Assembly (NCBI GenBank): GCA_017621635.1
Contig: JAGASU010000039.1
Coordinates: forward strand, 1-46,303
Direction of reading: 5' to 3'
DNA length: 46,303 nt
DNA from: Alphaproteobacteria bacterium
GTDB taxonomy: Bacteria; Pseudomonadota; Alphaproteobacteria; RF32; CAG-239
This document shows positions 15,952-22,323 of the stretch, one piece after another. A model generated the notes under the pieces. The model worked only from the letters and a program-made list of their open reading frames with translations, did no database searches and was not told the origin of the DNA. A program made the position numbers and the translations under genes. How positions within the stretch are numbered: the first letter of the stretch is position 1; every line of letters begins with the position of its first letter.

Positions 15952-17289
15952 ATGAAAGTAGGAATTATCGGGACGGGATATGTTGGTTTGCCGACGGGTG
16001 TCGGGTTGGCTGAACTGGGCAATGATGTTATTTGCATTGACAGAGAGCCTAAGAAGATTGAGGCACTTAAAGCGGGCAAGATTACGTTGTATGAAGACGG
16101 ATTGGAAGAACTGTTTAATAAGAACGTTAAAGCCGGACGAATTAAATTTACTACCTCGATGAAAGAGGGTGTTGAAGATGCGGATTTAGTGATTATCGCA
16201 GTTGGCACACCGCCACATCCGGTGACGAAAGAGGCGGATATGAAATATATTCATGCAGCGGCAACCGAACTGGCGGAATATTTGAGAGGCTATACAGTTA
16301 TTGCGACCAAATCGACGGTTCCGGTGGGGACGGGCGATGATATTGAAGCTTTGATTGCCAAGAAGAACCCGTTTGCCAACTTTGATGTTGTTTCATTGCC
16401 GGAGTTTTTACGCGAGGGCTTTGCCGTGCATGATTTCTTCCATCCTGACCGTGTGGTTGTGGGGGCAAATACCGAAAAAGCGCGCAATGTGATTAAAGAA
16501 CTTTATAAGCCGTTTGAGGGCAAGACAAATATGTTATTTGTGAAACGGCGCTCAAGTGAAACGATTAAATATGCATCAAATGCGTTTTTAGCTATAAAAA
16601 TCCATTATATTAACGAGATGGCTAATTTTTGTGAAAAGACGGGTGCGGACATTACCGAAGTTGCCAAAGGGATGGGGCTGGACAGCCGAATCGGCAATCG
16701 GTTTTTGAATCCGGGGCCGGGGTATGGTGGCAGTTGTTTTCCGAAAGACACAATGGCTATGGCTTATATGGCGCGGCAGAATGATGTTGAGATGACGTTA
16801 ATTAAGGCGGCGATTGACGGTAATGTGAAGCGCAAAAAAGAAATGGCAGAGCGGATTTTGGAAATGGTTAAAGGGATTGAAAAGCCGAGAATCGCTGTTT
16901 TGGGGCTGGCTTTCAAAGACGGGACTGATGATTGCAGAGAGAGTCCGGCAATGGAGATTTTGGGCAATTTGCTTGAACATAAAGTTCAGGTGACGGCATA
17001 CGACCCGAAGGCGATGGGGACAGCCTGCCAACTTTTGGGTGATAAAATTTGTTATGCCGATGATATGTATCAGGCGCTTGAAGGTGCTGATGTGCTGGCA
17101 ATTTTGACCGAATGGGGCGAGTTCAAAACGCTTGATTTGGCGAAAGCCGGCTCTTTAATGCGACATAAAAATATCGTCGACTGCCGCAATCTCCTTGATG
17201 TTAACGACGCTTTGAGAAACGGCTTTGATTATCAGGGAATCGGGAAAAAGGCGGTGAAGGCCGATGTTGATTTGAGAAAGGCTGTGTAA
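15952..17289 (+). CDS. ugd: UDP-glucose 6-dehydrogenase
   Basis: MKVGIIGTGYVGLPTG Rossmann start, catalytic GGSCFPKD, 445 aa. Confidence 0.95.
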   Translation: MKVGIIGTGYVGLPTGVGLAELGNDVICIDREPKKIEALKAGKITLYEDGLEELFNKNVKAGRIKFTTSMKEGVEDADLVIIAVGTPPHPVTKEADMKYIHAAATELAEYLRGYTVIATKSTVPVGTGDDIEALIAKKNPFANFDVVSLPEFLREGFAVHDFFHPDRVVVGANTEKARNVIKELYKPFEGKTNMLFVKRRSSETIKYASNAFLAIKIHYINEMANFCEKTGADITEVAKGMGLDSRIGNRFLNPGPGYGGSCFPKDTMAMAYMARQNDVEMTLIKAAIDGNVKRKKEMAERILEMVKGIEKPRIAVLGLAFKDGTDDCRESPAMEILGNLLEHKVQVTAYDPKAMGTACQLLGDKICYADDMYQALEGADVLAILTEWGEFKTLDLAKAGSLMRHKNIVDCRNLLDVNDALRNGFDYQGIGKKAVKADVDLRKAV

Positions 17290-19367
17290 TGATTAATCCT
17301 AATCCTATAATTTCTGTTATTGTTCCTGTTTATAATGCAGAAAAATATTTATGCCAGTGCTTAGATAGCATAATTAATCAGACGTTTGAGGCAATAGAGA
17401 TTCTTTGTGTTGATGATGGCTCAACAGATTCGTCGTTGGCTATTTTGAATAGATATGCTTCTAAAGATGATCGTATAAAAGTTTTTTCTCAGAAAAATTC
17501 AGGTCCTGCTAAGGCTAGAAATGTTGGATTAGAAAATTCTTGCGGTGACTACATTATGTTTTGTGATGCCGATGATACGTATGAGCCTAATATGTGTGAA
17601 GAAATGTATCGGACTATTAATGACAAAAATGTTGATGTTGTTATGTGTAATATTTCTGCTTTTGATAAAAATATTCGTTTTTGTAATTCGGGATATTATT
17701 TTCCTTTTAAAGAGGGGACATATCAGGTTACAGATTTAATTAAAGAAAAAACAAATGTGTATTTGTGGAATAAGATTTTTAGAAGATCTTTAATCGACAT
17801 GTTTAGAATGAAATTTCCTGATGGTCATAAATCAGATGATAACGCTTTTATTTATCAATATTTAATGGCTTCTAAATCTATTTATTTTCTGGATGTAAAA
17901 TGTTATAATCATTATGAGTGTGAGAACTCTATAATGGATTTGTATCGTTCGGATGGAATTAAAATTGAAGATGTTTATGATAAAGTAGATATTATGCTCT
18001 TTGTGTATCGTTTTTTGCAAAAAAATAATTTAGTGTCTTTAAATAAAATATGTTTTTCAAATTTGTTTTATAATGAATTGTTTTATGCTTGGCAAAATCT
18101 TCCAAATCGGTGGATTTCTTTGTTTTTAAAGAGAGTTGCAACAGTGATAGATACAATTGGAGTGGAGAATTTTGAATATGAAGATATTGAAAAAAGATTG
18201 TTAATTGATAAATTAAAAGAAGAAGCGTTTTTTTCTGTTCAATATTTTTTAGATTTGAAGATTTTACAGGCAGGTAAAGTTCGGAGAAAATTTGTTGGCG
18301 AGGGTTTTCCTGAGCCTGCTTTTTCTGAAAAGGTTGTACCTGTCGTATTTAATTGTGATAGTAATTTTGTTAAGTATTTTTCTGTAGCATTGCAGTCTTT
18401 AGTGGAAAATATAACATCTGAATTTAACTATGATATAGTTATTTTAAACAATGATATTTCGGAACAACAGCAGGATACGATAATTAAATATTATGAATAT
18501 AAAAAAAATGTTTCAATTCGTTTTTATAATATGAATATACTTACCAAAAGTTTTAATATTGATAAACTTAAAACTGTTAATCATGTTAAATTAGCAGCTT
18601 ATTATCGTTTGTTTATTCCGACGATTTTTCAACATTATAATAAGGTTGTTTATTTAGATTCTGATATTATTTTAAAAAATGATATTTCTCAATTATTTAA
18701 AACTAATATTGATGATGTTGCCTGTGCAGCAGTGAAGGATGTTTTTGTTTCTAATGTGACGGCTGAAAATGAGCTTTATTTTAAAGGTTTTTATGAATAT
18801 AGTAAGACTGTTTTAGGTATTACAGATTTGAAGAAGTATTTTAATTCGGGAGTGATGTTATTTAATATAAAAAAGTGTTTGCGAGAAGATTATCAAATAA
18901 AGTTTATGGACGTTGCGCAAAGAAATAATAAGTATTTTAATGATCAAAATGTTTTAAATGCTGTGTTACAGAACGATGTAAAATTTTTAGATATCAATTG
19001 GAATGTGCAGTTAAATTTTACATGTCCTTTGGTTGTTCTGAATATGAACGAGTTTAGTAATTTGCATATTTTACATTTTTGTAGCCGGTTTAAACCATGG
19101 CAGAGGTCTTTTGAAGAAAGATATGATGATATTTGGTGGAAATATGCCAGGAAATCTCCTTTTTATGAGATTATACTTAGAGATTTTCTTACGGGGGAAC
19201 GTGAATCTCAATTTAGGCAAATTTTTACTTATAGAAAGGATAAATTAAAATATTTGCGTTATAAAATTTTATCAAAAATTACGTTTGGTAAAATGCGTAA
19301 GCATTATAAGCGGAAGAAAAAAGAGCTTAAAATGCGGTTGAAAGAGATTAAAAGGTTATTGAAATAA
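17289..19367 (+). CDS. Two-domain glycosyltransferase: N-terminal GT2 and C-terminal GT8, with a basic amphipathic tail
   Basis: GT2 part: ISVIVPVYNAEKYL...CVDDGSTD...IMFCDADD. GT8 part (from about residue 349, nt 18333): VPVVFNCDSNF...AAYYRLFIP...VVYLDSDI...NSGVMLFN...LHFCSRFKPW. The start overlaps the ugd stop (TAATG). GC is about 23-32% in sampled lines. Confidence 0.85.
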   Translation: MINPNPIISVIVPVYNAEKYLCQCLDSIINQTFEAIEILCVDDGSTDSSLAILNRYASKDDRIKVFSQKNSGPAKARNVGLENSCGDYIMFCDADDTYEPNMCEEMYRTINDKNVDVVMCNISAFDKNIRFCNSGYYFPFKEGTYQVTDLIKEKTNVYLWNKIFRRSLIDMFRMKFPDGHKSDDNAFIYQYLMASKSIYFLDVKCYNHYECENSIMDLYRSDGIKIEDVYDKVDIMLFVYRFLQKNNLVSLNKICFSNLFYNELFYAWQNLPNRWISLFLKRVATVIDTIGVENFEYEDIEKRLLIDKLKEEAFFSVQYFLDLKILQAGKVRRKFVGEGFPEPAFSEKVVPVVFNCDSNFVKYFSVALQSLVENITSEFNYDIVILNNDISEQQQDTIIKYYEYKKNVSIRFYNMNILTKSFNIDKLKTVNHVKLAAYYRLFIPTIFQHYNKVVYLDSDIILKNDISQLFKTNIDDVACAAVKDVFVSNVTAENELYFKGFYEYSKTVLGITDLKKYFNSGVMLFNIKKCLREDYQIKFMDVAQRNNKYFNDQNVLNAVLQNDVKFLDINWNVQLNFTCPLVVLNMNEFSNLHILHFCSRFKPWQRSFEERYDDIWWKYARKSPFYEIILRDFLTGERESQFRQIFTYRKDKLKYLRYKILSKITFGKMRKHYKRKKKELKMRLKEIKRLLK

Positions 19368-19388
19368 TGATTATTAAGGAGAACTGTT

Positions 19389-21080
19389 ATGGAAGAATAT
19401 TATAAGCCTAGAGTTGATGAAATTCAGGAATTTATTGAGATTGCACATGATTTTTCGAATCCGTTAGAAATTGTCAGAGAAGCGATTAGCAATTCGTTTG
19501 ATGCCGGTGCAAAAAATATAGGTATTTCATTTGCTATGGAAAATAAAGATGGTGACAACCTTCTAAAAATAATTTTAGAAGATGATGGTTGTGGTATGGG
19601 AAGAAAAGAACTGGAAGCTTTTTTTAATTTGGGGGATTCTACAAAAAGAGAAGACGAAGCCTGTATTGGCGAAAAAGGTCATGGAACAAAAGTATATTTT
19701 AACAGCTCTCGTGTTGAAGTATTCACAAGAAAAGGTGAAGAATGTTTATATGCACGAATGGATTTGCCTTTTAAAAAATTGTATAATAGAGAAATTCCTC
19801 AAGTTTTGATTCGTGAAGAAGATAGTTCAACTTGTTTAAAAGGGACAAAAATCATTGTTTGGGGGTATAATAATAATCAAAGGGAAAAATTCAGGCATAG
19901 TCTTTTAAAGGATTATATTTTTTGGTTTACAAAATTCGGCTCTATGGAAAAAGAATTTGGAATAACTGAAAATTGTGATGTCAAGTTACATTTGAAAGGA
20001 TTGGATAAAACAGAAGAAGAGGTTTTGGATTTTGGGCATGTTTTTCCGGACGATACTAAGAATTTGAACAAGTTATGGGAAGAATATGACGTTTATGCTC
20101 CTGACTATTATTGTAGAAAAATTGTAAAATCCGGATGTTTAGAAAATGCACCTGAAATCACGTATAATGCGATTTTTGTTATTGAGGGTAAAAAAGTTAA
20201 GTATAAATATAATGATATGTTACGCAGAAGCGGGTATGCGGCACCATTTGGCGCCTATACAGTACAAGAGAGATATGGGCTTTGGTTATGTAAAGATTTT
20301 ATACCAGTTCAGAGAAAAAATGAATGGGTTGTCAATAAAGGGAATGAATACACTCGATTGCATGCTTTTTTTAATTGTCAGGGGTTAAAATTAACCGCAA
20401 ACAGGGGGTCTGTTGAAAATACGCCGCATGATATATTAAAAGATATTAAGACGGAAGTTAAAAAGACTTTTGAAAGTATTTTGGAGAGTGATGATTGGCG
20501 GAACATTGATTGGTTGTCTGAACAGGTAGATGGATATAAGACTGTAACTAAAGAAAATAAAGATTTTAAATGGAGGGTGGAAAAAGTTAATGATTCGCGA
20601 ATCTGTTCTTATAACGATATTGTTTTAACAGAACCTAATCAAGAAAGCGGTGTATTGGCCTTATTTATGCAAATAGATATGCTTAATAGAGATTTATTTC
20701 CTTTTACGATTATTGATTATAATACGCATGAAGGAATTGATGTTATCGTAAAATCTAAAAATCAAAATTCTATTTCTGATAGCAAGTTATTTTATGTTGA
20801 GTTTAAACATATTCTAAAACATAAATTTAATCATTCTTTTGAGAATTTACATAGTATTGTTTGCTGGGATACTAAGTTAAAACATGATGAAATTTTAAAG
20901 GATATTAATGATGAAGAAAGACGTTTCTGCATTATTAAAGATGGTGATAAGAAGAAATACTTTTTAGATAATCCTAAAAAAGCACGTAAAATAGAAGTTA
21001 TTGTGCTAAAAGATTTTTTGAAAGATAATTTGGGACTAGAATTTCGTCCGCGGACAGAAGCTGATTGTTATTCACTTTAA
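19389..21080 (+). CDS. GHKL-superfamily ATPase (HATPase_c_3 type) with PD-(D/E)xK-like C-terminal module
   Basis: AAGGAGA SD. Bergerat-fold motifs are the N-box REAISNSFDAG (E31/N35/D38), G1 DDGCGMG (65-71) and G2 GEKGHGT (94-100). The C-terminus has E419 ... GIDVIV (D451) ... FYVEFKH (E471, K473). The ATPase call is firm; the nuclease call is tentative. Confidence 0.8.
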   Translation: MEEYYKPRVDEIQEFIEIAHDFSNPLEIVREAISNSFDAGAKNIGISFAMENKDGDNLLKIILEDDGCGMGRKELEAFFNLGDSTKREDEACIGEKGHGTKVYFNSSRVEVFTRKGEECLYARMDLPFKKLYNREIPQVLIREEDSSTCLKGTKIIVWGYNNNQREKFRHSLLKDYIFWFTKFGSMEKEFGITENCDVKLHLKGLDKTEEEVLDFGHVFPDDTKNLNKLWEEYDVYAPDYYCRKIVKSGCLENAPEITYNAIFVIEGKKVKYKYNDMLRRSGYAAPFGAYTVQERYGLWLCKDFIPVQRKNEWVVNKGNEYTRLHAFFNCQGLKLTANRGSVENTPHDILKDIKTEVKKTFESILESDDWRNIDWLSEQVDGYKTVTKENKDFKWRVEKVNDSRICSYNDIVLTEPNQESGVLALFMQIDMLNRDLFPFTIIDYNTHEGIDVIVKSKNQNSISDSKLFYVEFKHILKHKFNHSFENLHSIVCWDTKLKHDEILKDINDEERRFCIIKDGDKKKYFLDNPKKARKIEVIVLKDFLKDNLGLEFRPRTEADCYSL

Positions 21081-21090
21081 AAAAGTAGTT

Positions 21091-21115
21091 AGAGTCGGGT
21101 TACCGGCTCTTTTTT
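21091..21115 (+). terminator. Terminator of the glycan/GHKL operon (hairpin shared with the convergent gene end)
   Basis: Stem AGAGTCGG / CCGGCTCT (one G-U pair), loop GTTA, then T5. An A-run upstream makes it potentially bidirectional. It overlaps the stop codon of the minus-strand gene. Confidence 0.55.
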
Positions 21116-22323
21116 GTATTGCCGGCCAGAAGGAGTGTCGGGGTGGAAAGGGCTTGGTGGAGCTGGGTTAAGAGCTGGCGGTGGAGGTTTTGTTCGTTAT
21201 TTTCCGGATTGGAAAAAGCGGTGACGAGGGTGTAGGTTAGTTTGTCTTTGATTTCATTAAAGCCGATATAGGGTTCAAAAAGCTTGGTTTGGCTTGAAAA
21301 GTTTGTTTTCGGGTTATGTGCCTGAGCATTTTTGATTATTGCGGCAATGGCTGTGATTTCTTTAATTTGCGCAAGTTCTGTTTTTATGATTTCGGGGATT
21401 TGTTGCAAATCGTTTTCTACGGAAATTTCTTTTTCTGTCATTTCGGGTGTGGTTTGTTTGGCTTGATATTGAGAATGGCCTTTGGCGTCTATGGTTAGTT
21501 TTGCGGTTAAATTACGATCAAAAGGGGTACGGATGACGGCTTGTTTTTTGAAAATCGGGGTTAGCAGCGTGTTTTTGTATTCGACGAGGGTGTAGGCGTT
21601 GTATTCTGTTTCTTTGAGTTTGCATTGGATTGCGCGGGTTTCCAGATCATATGTTATCTGCAGTTTTCGTTTAAGGCGGTCACTACTTTGAGTGATTTGT
21701 TTTGTTATTTGTCCGGCGGAAATTTCGAGTGTTGTTTTATTGTCTGTAAATTCAGGGGTGTCACTGTCTGTTTCTTGTTTTACGGCTTCAAGGCTGAGGG
21801 ATTTGCCGTTTTTGCCGAGTGTGCTTTTTATGGTTTGATTGCGGGTTGTGGTATAACGATCCCCGACGTTATTTATTTCATTTTGGCGGGTTTCTGAAAA
21901 AGATTTGTCTTGCCCGTTAAATTCAGAAAGTTCGATTGAGGTTTGGGTGTTGATTTGGTATTTAGAGAGGGCTTTGCTGTCTGAAGTCTTTTTTTCAAGC
22001 CGGACAGTGTTTTTTTGCGTTGAAAAATCAATATTGACTGATGAATTTGGGCTTTGTGCTTCAATTTTTAAGCCAAAGTTGTCTGCGCTTTTGCCGGTAT
22101 GCTTTAACTTTGTGATTTTCATTTGCGGAGGGATTGAGAACTCGGCTTTGATGATTTCATGTAAAAGCGGGAGTGTTTGATTTGGGGTGAGAGGCGTTTG
22201 ATTTTGTGAAATTTGTCCGTTTGTCAAGGTTAAAATATCCGTGTTGCCTTTTTTGAAAAGAAGCTCATCGGGAGTGTTTTGATATAAAGTTATATCGTTT
22301 GACAGGGATATAGATGTTGACAT
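21100..22323 (-). CDS. Hypothetical T/Q/N/K-rich protein, no signal peptide or TM
   Basis: ORF trimmed to the ATG at 22323 (AAAGGAG SD 6 nt upstream). 407 aa, polar and predicted beta-rich, with no recognisable motif. Confidence 0.55.
   Translation of the reverse strand: MSTSISLSNDITLYQNTPDELLFKKGNTDILTLTNGQISQNQTPLTPNQTLPLLHEIIKAEFSIPPQMKITKLKHTGKSADNFGLKIEAQSPNSSVNIDFSTQKNTVRLEKKTSDSKALSKYQINTQTSIELSEFNGQDKSFSETRQNEINNVGDRYTTTRNQTIKSTLGKNGKSLSLEAVKQETDSDTPEFTDNKTTLEISAGQITKQITQSSDRLKRKLQITYDLETRAIQCKLKETEYNAYTLVEYKNTLLTPIFKKQAVIRTPFDRNLTAKLTIDAKGHSQYQAKQTTPEMTEKEISVENDLQQIPEIIKTELAQIKEITAIAAIIKNAQAHNPKTNFSSQTKLFEPYIGFNEIKDKLTYTLVTAFSNPENNEQNLHRQLLTQLHQALSTPTLLLAGNTKKSR

Follow-up and report, generated by a model that had tools for sequence, protein, structure and literature searches.

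A gene for a GHKL ATPase with a nuclease-like C-terminal domain, here called the GHKL gene, lies on contig JAGASU010000039.1 from an Alphaproteobacteria bacterium. We analyzed the gene within the whole 46,303-nucleotide (nt) stretch (positions 1 to 46303, forward strand), which we refer to as the window. The original prediction, made from the sequence, had suggested that its 563-amino-acid (aa) product could be an ATP-gated nuclease acting alone. The gene and its parts are as follows.

19389 to 21080, + strand: complete gene for the 563-aa GHKL-ATPase / nuclease-like protein, ATG to TAA (list of open reading frames, ORFs)
19376 to 19382, + strand: strong ribosome-binding site AAGGAGA, read from the sequence, 9 nt past the stop codon of the preceding GT2-GT8 glycosyltransferase gene and separated by 6 nt from the ATG
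19389 to 19973, + strand: GHKL (Bergerat-fold) ATPase domain, residues ~1-195 (Pfam HATPase_c_3; N-box, G1 and G2 motifs; Foldseek)
19974 to 20423, + strand: middle (transducer, S5-like) domain, residues ~196-345 (Foldseek; conservation of K302 and R339)
20424 to 20594, + strand: three-helix linker, residues ~346-402 (helices 347-365, 368-382 and 386-402 of the AlphaFold model)
20595 to 21077, + strand: C-terminal nuclease-like domain, residues ~403-563 (confident domain model; invariant E419, D451, E471-x-K473, N481-H482 and C492)
21091 to 21116, + strand: terminator-like hairpin (8-bp stem, 5 GC pairs) and T-run (consensus scan and sequence)

We recomputed the positions of the ORF and its motifs, and the reading frame, strand, length and motif residues were as originally claimed. 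The N-box, REAISNSFDAG, is residues 30-40 (nt 19476-19508) and includes E31, N35 and D38. The G1 motif, DDGCGMG, is residues 65-71 (D65-x-G67-x-G69), and the G2 motif, GEKGHGT, is residues 94-100 (G94-EK-G97-H-G99-T100). These are the ExxxNxxD, DxGxG and GxxGxG motifs of the GHKL (Bergerat-fold) superfamily, and a profile match places the protein there as well: Pfam HATPase_c_3, the sole Pfam family found, matched residues 28-127 (E = 1.9e-13, 51 bits vs a cutoff of 25). The residues E31, N35 and D38 and those of G1 and G2 were invariant in 36 homologs at 55-65% identity. Among 66 full-length representatives of 50%-identity clusters, the set used for conservation of the ATP site, the motifs were also invariant except for three cases of D65N, isolated cases of D38N, G69A and G97S, and one N-terminally truncated sequence.

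We found that the ATPase domain is followed by a middle domain of the MORC/Hsp90 type. An AlphaFold2 model of the whole protein was built on the 36 homologs (mean pLDDT, the predicted local distance difference test score, 78.8). In Foldseek searches the model aligned over 400-490 columns with the N and M domains of Hsp90 and with the ATPase modules of MORC2/3/4 and SMCHD1 (E = 1e-14 to 1e-10). As judged from this predicted structure, the protein contains a MORC/paraMORC-type module, that is, a GHKL ATPase with an S5-like transducer domain, and then three helices (residues 347-402). In the middle domain R339 is invariant and K302 nearly invariant in the 66 representatives, and we infer that one of the two senses the gamma-phosphate. 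The Bergerat ATPase of the original prediction is thus real, and so is the lack of an H-box and of topoisomerase and MutL-type regions, since Pfam found no HisKA, MutL C-terminal or topoisomerase domain in the 563-aa protein. NCBIfam and PADLOC gave only weak matches to the GHKL core (BbrUII/HgiDII restriction enzyme, MutL, sacsin, MzaB and REase_II).

The C-terminal domain carries a conserved E-D-ExK signature. The original prediction had pointed to E419, to D451 in GIDVIV (residues 449-454) and to E471 and K473 in FYVEFKH (residues 468-474), and had held that the idea of a nuclease would fall if the D/ExK residues were not conserved among homologs. We found that they are conserved. All four residues are invariant in the 36 close homologs (55-65% identity). 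In an alignment of the C-terminal domain that includes eight distant members at 23-28% identity, E419, D451, E471, K473, N481, H482 and C492 are invariant, and all seven are kept in approximately 45 full-length, domain-bearing cluster representatives, with single exceptions for N481 and C492. Modelled alone, the domain reached a pLDDT of 93.6 and a predicted template modelling score (pTM) of 0.87. In the models, helix 419-432 begins at E419, strand 451-456 begins at D451, and strand 467-476 contains both E471 and K473. The conserved residues therefore fall in the order helix(E)-strand-strand(D)-strand(ExK) that is canonical for PD-(D/E)xK enzymes, and the spacings between them (32 and 19 residues) are typical of a PD-(D/E)xK core. 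The corresponding four motif residues of Bacillus cereus Shedu are E204, D249, E264 and K266. Based on motif, spacing and order of secondary structure, which must carry the assignment because no library or fold search recognized the domain, we consider it likely, though unproven, that the C-terminal domain is a nuclease.

Several results weigh against a nuclease, and the restriction-endonuclease fold originally suggested was not recovered by any search. Pfam had no match to the domain at E <= 1-5 in 11 family members scanned, neither NCBIfam nor PADLOC recognized it, and PHROGs yielded only weak matches to two families of unknown function. A profile of the domain searched against all PDB sequences returned nothing meaningful. 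Foldseek with the domain model gave a best E of 0.28 in the PDB with no nuclease in the top 50, the best rows being fatty-acid-binding proteins and similar noise, and against BFVD it gave a best E of 0.027 and no match. In the canonical alpha-beta-beta-beta-alpha-beta fold a helix comes after the ExK strand; the model has none before its next strand, and is all-beta past residue 500. A sister clade of proteins of ~505-570 aa (P0206, P0207, P0211, P0217, P0222, P0225, P0230, P0232, P0234, P0237 and P0238) keeps the E, D and E residues, H482 and mostly C492, but at the position of K473 its members have E, V or I. Because this clade replaces the lysine of ExK, the conserved residues might serve something besides classical PD-(D/E)xK catalysis.

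These results bear on the weightiest alternative, that the protein is not a nuclease and works as an ATP-driven clamp like MORC or Hsp90, which would bind, compact or remodel DNA or protein. The acidic, His and Cys residues would then serve in metal or ligand binding or in oligomerization, and the clamp might, for example, silence foreign DNA or act with unlinked enzymes. The confident C-terminal model that resembles no nuclease in fold or profile and the sister clade that retains E, D, E, H482 and C492 without the lysine speak for such a clamp. So does the existence of motif-less relatives in haloarchaea, which partner a DpdA-like transglycosylase and suggest a DNA-handling ATPase without a nuclease of its own. 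However, E...D...ExK is strictly invariant, at canonical spacing and placement, in approximately 45 clusters, and this is how an active PD-(D/E)xK site classically shows itself. Small decorated PD-(D/E)xK cores often escape structure and profile searches, and the validated analogue VcSduA, discussed below, requires its ExK lysine. We regard a non-nuclease clamp as unlikely; the other alternatives weighed below, in decreasing order, are a conflict gene of mobile elements, half of a split restriction-modification (R-M) system, and a member of the glycan operon.

The haloarchaeal relatives are 518 aa long, are 27-34% identical to the window protein over the ATPase and middle domains, and are encoded immediately downstream of a DpdA-like tRNA-guanine transglycosylase (TGT). 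The two TGT-GHKL loci are on a Natrinema plasmid (L092:4943-7545, NZ_CP082247.1) and a Haladaptatus plasmid (L093:4293-7557, NZ_CP119784.1). The C-terminus of the Natrinema protein lacks the D and ExK residues in a BLAST alignment. The Haladaptatus locus includes, close by, a DUF6884/YaaA-like gene and genes for a DEAD helicase and a PLD nuclease, making up a Dpd-like 7-deazaguanine DNA-modification cluster. The pairing of this ATPase module with DpdA-like DNA transglycosylases hints that the clamp could read the modification state of DNA.

We found that the family is compact and that its distribution is wide and patchy. A word-indexed search returned 1887 homologs. The best 120 of these were all full-length (554-590 aa) and 55-65% identical, and those that had a name were called "ATP-binding protein" or "hypothetical protein". 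An exhaustive search of 1.84 billion representatives with a hidden Markov model gave 1797 matches at E <= 1e-3, of which only 220, with many fragments among them, reached E <= 1e-30; we therefore consider the family compact. A search with a profile of the C-terminal domain gave only fragments of the same family and no other architecture. Relatives at 44-63% identity to the query were present in 176 of 185,579 species (~0.1%; one genome per species), which is a lower bound because the scan was pattern-based. The carriers belong to the Acidobacteriota, Bacillota, Bacteroidota, Chlorobiota, Spirochaetota, Desulfobacterota, Nitrospirota, Verrucomicrobiota, Chloroflexota and Proteobacteria and, among archaea, to the Thermoplasmata and Methanofastidiosia. 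The closest homolog in this set of genomes (63% identity) is from an alphaproteobacterial metagenome-assembled genome and has no synteny with the window. From the high identity together with the patchy spread, we conclude that the gene is often transferred horizontally and is under strong purifying selection.

Copies of the gene also appear to decay. Internally disrupted copies (split ORFs) were found at 3/80 loci (L020, L041 and L058) and shortened copies at 3 more (L049, L081 and L090), so that ~7% of the genome loci are affected. Many C-terminal-half fragments of 130-330 aa (P0271-P0386) are on long contigs. The disrupted copies and fragments suggest frequent pseudogenization, or assembly frameshifts.

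In the window, the GHKL gene and the gene before it are compositionally foreign. The GHKL gene starts 21 nt past the stop codon of the GT2-GT8 glycosyltransferase gene on the same strand. Its GC content is 0.313 (GC3, the GC content of third codon positions, 0.230) and that of the GT2-GT8 gene is 0.277 (GC3 0.219), compared to 0.38-0.46 for the surrounding genes. The gene had been described as the terminal gene of an AT-rich insertion, in keeping with horizontal acquisition; this description holds, and the insertion covers two genes, both with GC below that of their surroundings. With a 21-nt gap, a ribosome-binding site of its own and a terminator-like hairpin behind it, the GHKL gene is the last gene of a + strand glycan operon. 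A promoter of its own was not separable from the AT-rich background (20 sites vs 14.3 +/- 4.5 expected).

We found no methyltransferase, helicase or mobility gene adjacent to the GHKL gene in the window and no integrase among the window genes with Pfam annotation. There were no flanking repeats at the insertion beyond AT-rich chance matches, and no tRNA genes in the window. The identical 563-aa protein was present on 7 metagenome contigs, with the arrangement unchanged in all seven. Judged by its Mpl ligase, the host seems to be an alphaproteobacterium of ~40% GC that is uncultured. When the flanking UDP-glucose dehydrogenase and AnmK were looked up by exact match, no variant without the GHKL gene turned up; every contig had the same arrangement. 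For this genome the finding is a local one: a surface-glycan operon has received a foreign gene at its end.

The neighbors of the GHKL gene have features of their own. The GT2-GT8 gene (17289-19367, + strand) encodes 692 aa with a GT2 and then a GT8 domain, is more AT-rich than the GHKL gene, and overlaps at its start with the stop codon of the gene for UDP-glucose dehydrogenase. Its arrival may have coincided with that of the GHKL gene or preceded it. On the other side, a convergent ORF (21100-22323, - strand) encodes 407 aa rich in T, Q, N, S and K, has a native-like GC of 0.41, gave no significant Pfam match, and is not conserved beside homologs elsewhere. The two converging genes have the terminator in common: the hairpin proper (21091-21110) overlaps the stop codon of the 407-aa ORF. 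Over positions 1-46303 the GC skew of the + strand is uniformly positive (mean 0.26; G = 11592, C = 6844), far above typical bacterial values. Because it is present in genes of both strands (0.10-0.38), it reflects strand asymmetry rather than coding orientation.

The position of the gene suggests that it is co-transcribed at the end of the surface-glycan operon, and it could then be a functional part of this operon, such as a kinase-like regulator. The GT2-GT8 gene lies 21 nt ahead of it in the same orientation, one terminator follows the pair, and a chimeric ORF at another, metagenomic locus implies that a GT2 gene was once directly upstream of a family member there too. However, glycosyltransferases are not among the recurrent neighbors in 80 loci, there is no histidine-kinase H-box in the protein and no receiver or membrane element, and the closest homologs are in unrelated contexts. 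Foreign genes commonly land in variable glycan loci. We consider a role in the glycan operon very improbable.

The chimeric ORF, P0343 (254 aa; L109:7295-8765, metagenome contig ERZ25039471 contig_10418), consists of the first ~103 residues of a GT2 glycosyltransferase joined to the last ~150 of the family's C-terminal domain. It is closely preceded by two short ORFs without annotation (55 and 180 aa). P0343 has the appearance of a fusion created by a deletion, and it adds a second instance in which a GT2 gene directly precedes a gene of the family. Elsewhere, a partial ORF (L110:3-170) just upstream of P0002, the closest homolog (65% identity), ends in a repeated Y-[FM]-L-x-IP-[IV]-x-K; these repeats may resemble the C-terminal membrane-association repeats of some polysaccharide glycosyltransferases.

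The gene was a stand-alone gene, as the original prediction had it, in the window and in all 80 related loci that we examined. BLAST clustering of 839 neighboring ORFs from the 80 loci, and tallies of Pfam and PADLOC matches over two genes on each side, revealed no conserved partner gene. The largest cluster of neighbors was present at 9/80 loci and includes a gene of a Leptospira locus that Pfam calls an integrase. Pfam matches were scattered (Phage_integrase 5, ResIII 5, DEAD 4, N6_N4 methylase 2, transposases, PIN and AAA_21), as were strong PADLOC matches (Gabija, PbeA, AbiLi, DRT, AriA, PDC-S65, Menshen NsnA and bSEFIR).

Some of the copies are in defense islands or next to mobile-element genes. 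An island in Leptospira has, in order, an integrase, ImmA, PemK, HigB, the GHKL gene, SIR2, HNH and an MmeI-type enzyme, and another homolog adjoins an integrase, IS66 and Qat genes. Two members of the sister clade that we examined are stand-alone (L111 and L112), one by MazEF and HicB and the other by Gabija and a transposase. The gene for P0025 (565 aa) directly follows a NikA/TraG/TrwC mobilization module on several contigs (L005/L006), and the identical protein is encoded in a wholly different neighborhood at L007, which indicates a very recent transfer. A copy on a Caballeronia plasmid is in an accessory region near anti-restriction, ParB and RelE/ParE genes. The gene is autonomous and mobile, and is often, not always, in defense or mobile-element neighborhoods. 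The expectation that homologs would be found in such neighborhoods was therefore borne out in part: a subset is in defense islands or by integrases and relaxases, and many are solitary among housekeeping genes.

The same neighborhoods raise the alternative that the gene is selfish, acting in exclusion or addiction on behalf of integrative or mobilizable elements rather than against phages on behalf of the host. Its copies adjoin relaxase and type IV coupling protein modules, integrases, insertion sequences, toxin-antitoxin pairs and a plasmid anti-restriction/ParB region; an identical protein is in different contexts; and the disrupted copies (3/80 loci), the 3 shortened ones and the many fragments on long contigs would fit such a gene. 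However, these contexts are typical of defense islands. An inter-element conflict gene would leave the ATP-gated nuclease mechanism unchanged and would differ mainly in who benefits. We consider it improbable, and less so than the glycan-operon role.

A further alternative is that the protein is the restriction half of a Type II-like R-M system akin to BbrUII/HgiDII, with its methyltransferase elsewhere in the genome. The best NCBIfam match is to the BbrUII/HgiDII family, over the N-terminal region, there is a weak PADLOC match to REase_II, and DNA methyltransferases are near a few homologs. However, the NCBIfam match reaches 32 bits where the cutoff is 550, and it does not extend beyond the GHKL region, and PADLOC placed type II methyltransferases near the gene in a few of ~80 loci only, with none nearby in the window. 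The family is 55-60% identical across phyla, and fixed-specificity restriction enzymes are seldom conserved to that degree. We think it rather more doubtful than a conflict gene that half of an R-M system is encoded here.

We favor, with moderate confidence, the view that the window protein is a horizontally acquired, single-polypeptide, ATP-gated nuclease of the GHKL/paraMORC type that most likely acts against invading DNA (phages, plasmids or other mobile elements). The ATPase, the stand-alone gene and the conserved E-D-ExK residues of the single-gene reading first put forward are borne out, and the nuclease fold is the part that was not confirmed. By analogy with GHKL enzymes generally, and with VcSduA in particular, ATP binding would dimerize the GHKL domains, with the conserved N-terminal segment (residues 7-26) serving as a strap, and the middle domains would close as a clamp around DNA. 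The helical linker would pass this closure on to the paired C-terminal domains, which would then cleave the DNA, and ATP hydrolysis would reset the enzyme. Since there is no linked methyltransferase, discrimination between self and non-self would have to come from elsewhere, such as DNA modification, DNA structure or ends, or a phage factor.

A role against invading DNA fits some observations poorly. No homolog was found in phage records, and homologs are nearly absent from plasmids (3/72,556). Several loci, including the window, are solitary among housekeeping genes with no defense neighbors; the Electrothrix copy, for example, is a lone insertion between a Na+/H+ exchanger gene and purE that resembles the window. 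The function of the family is itself a prediction from sequence, model and context.

The ATPase and transducer-type middle domain are also those of MutL, MORC, Hsp90 and SMCHD1, whose ATPase modules dimerize upon ATP binding and form clamps. The window protein lacks the CW/zinc-finger domain, the SMC hinge, the Hsp90 C-terminal domain and the MutL C-terminal dimerization/endonuclease domain. We rejected MutL itself, as TIGR00585 scored 28.8 vs a cutoff of 180 over residues 24-79, and MutL entries in the PDB matched at E >= 0.02 over the N-box only. A sensor histidine kinase was rejected because Pfam found no HisKA-type domain and the GHKL domain begins at the N-terminus, and topoisomerase VI-B because its matches cover only the GHKL core, far below curated cutoffs. 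MzaB is likewise a GHKL ATPase of a defense system, with weak matches in both PADLOC and NCBIfam; these reach 18-20 bits where the cutoff is 850 and are limited to the GHKL core. MZA systems consist of several genes, and there are no Mza partners here. The BbrUII/HgiDII enzymes (NCBIfam NF050001) are like the window protein in having a GHKL ATPase fused to a DNA-cleaving enzyme. The match covers only residues 23-167 and no cognate methyltransferase is linked, and we rejected membership in this Type II R-M group because there is no full-length profile match and no adjacent methyltransferase in the window.

The closest parallels are paraMORC3 and Shedu type I-D. paraMORC3 proteins consist of a GHKL domain, an S5 domain and a C-terminal restriction-endonuclease-fold domain with E-D-ExK; they are widely but sporadically distributed, and a subset is stand-alone, outside R-M operons (Iyer, Abhiman, Aravind 2008, PMC2292703). 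Compared by description, the window protein fits this published definition, with E419, D451 and E471-x-K473 invariant. The difference is that the 2008 paper had profile hits to RecB-family nucleases (PMC2292703), and the domain of the window protein has none. In type 1D Shedu homologs, HATPase_c_3 and an Hsp90/MORC-like middle domain precede a DUF4263 nuclease (Gu et al.). One Shedu type I-D protein, equated with paraMORC3, is VcSduA (PMC12137116; bioRxiv 10.1101/2023.08.10.552793). VcSduA, from VSP-II of Vibrio cholerae WASA, is a single-gene defense against T1-like phages (Adams et al. 2025, PMC12137116), and the substitutions E27A (ATPase) and K557A (nuclease) each abolish protection (PMC12137116).

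VcSduA and the window protein are each encoded by one gene and are of similar size; both have a GHKL domain (HATPase_c_3), an Hsp90/MORC-like middle domain and a C-terminal E/D/ExK domain, and share the lack of a linked methyltransferase and a sporadic distribution of the kind produced by horizontal gene transfer. They differ in the position of the ExK lysine (557 in VcSduA, 473 in the window protein) and in the long helix after the ExK strand, which the window protein lacks. We rejected membership in Shedu as defined by DUF4263. The DUF4263 family (PF14082) had no Pfam match at E <= 1-5 in the window protein and 10 diverse members, SduA had no match in PADLOC at E <= 1, and NCBIfam gave no match to a Shedu model. 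The structural similarity expected of Shedu/EndoMS enzymes was absent from the Foldseek and profile searches of the PDB described above. The two are set apart by these models, not by direct alignment with VcSduA. Plasmid-borne GHKL "ATP-binding proteins" from a permissive tblastn search were similar in the GHKL core only, and the five that were scanned with Pfam had no DUF4263. The original prediction did not recognize the protein as part of a named single-gene defense family, which holds to the extent that it fails the test for DUF4263; a named family with the same architecture does exist, exemplified by VcSduA.

It is possible, although we put this forward only tentatively, that the family is a widespread, unannotated single-gene defense system whose effector would be an unclassified nuclease domain (a highly divergent PD-(D/E)xK or a new fold), gated by a MORC-like clamp and independent in its evolution of the DUF4263-based Shedu I-D. 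If so, a conserved system of one gene, present in ~0.1% of species among both bacteria and archaea, escapes PADLOC 2.0, Pfam and NCBIfam, where it is labelled just "ATP-binding protein". Control of a nuclease by a GHKL clamp would then have a second, independent example, informative about how ATP-driven dimerization licenses DNA cleavage. The C-terminal domain, with its confident model and no known look-alike, should lend itself well to structure determination. In architecture and proposed logic the protein follows what is already known and has been validated in one case, VcSduA. We have filed the window protein as a putative analogue that would work like a paraMORC3 / Shedu I-D enzyme, rather than as a demonstrated member of Shedu.

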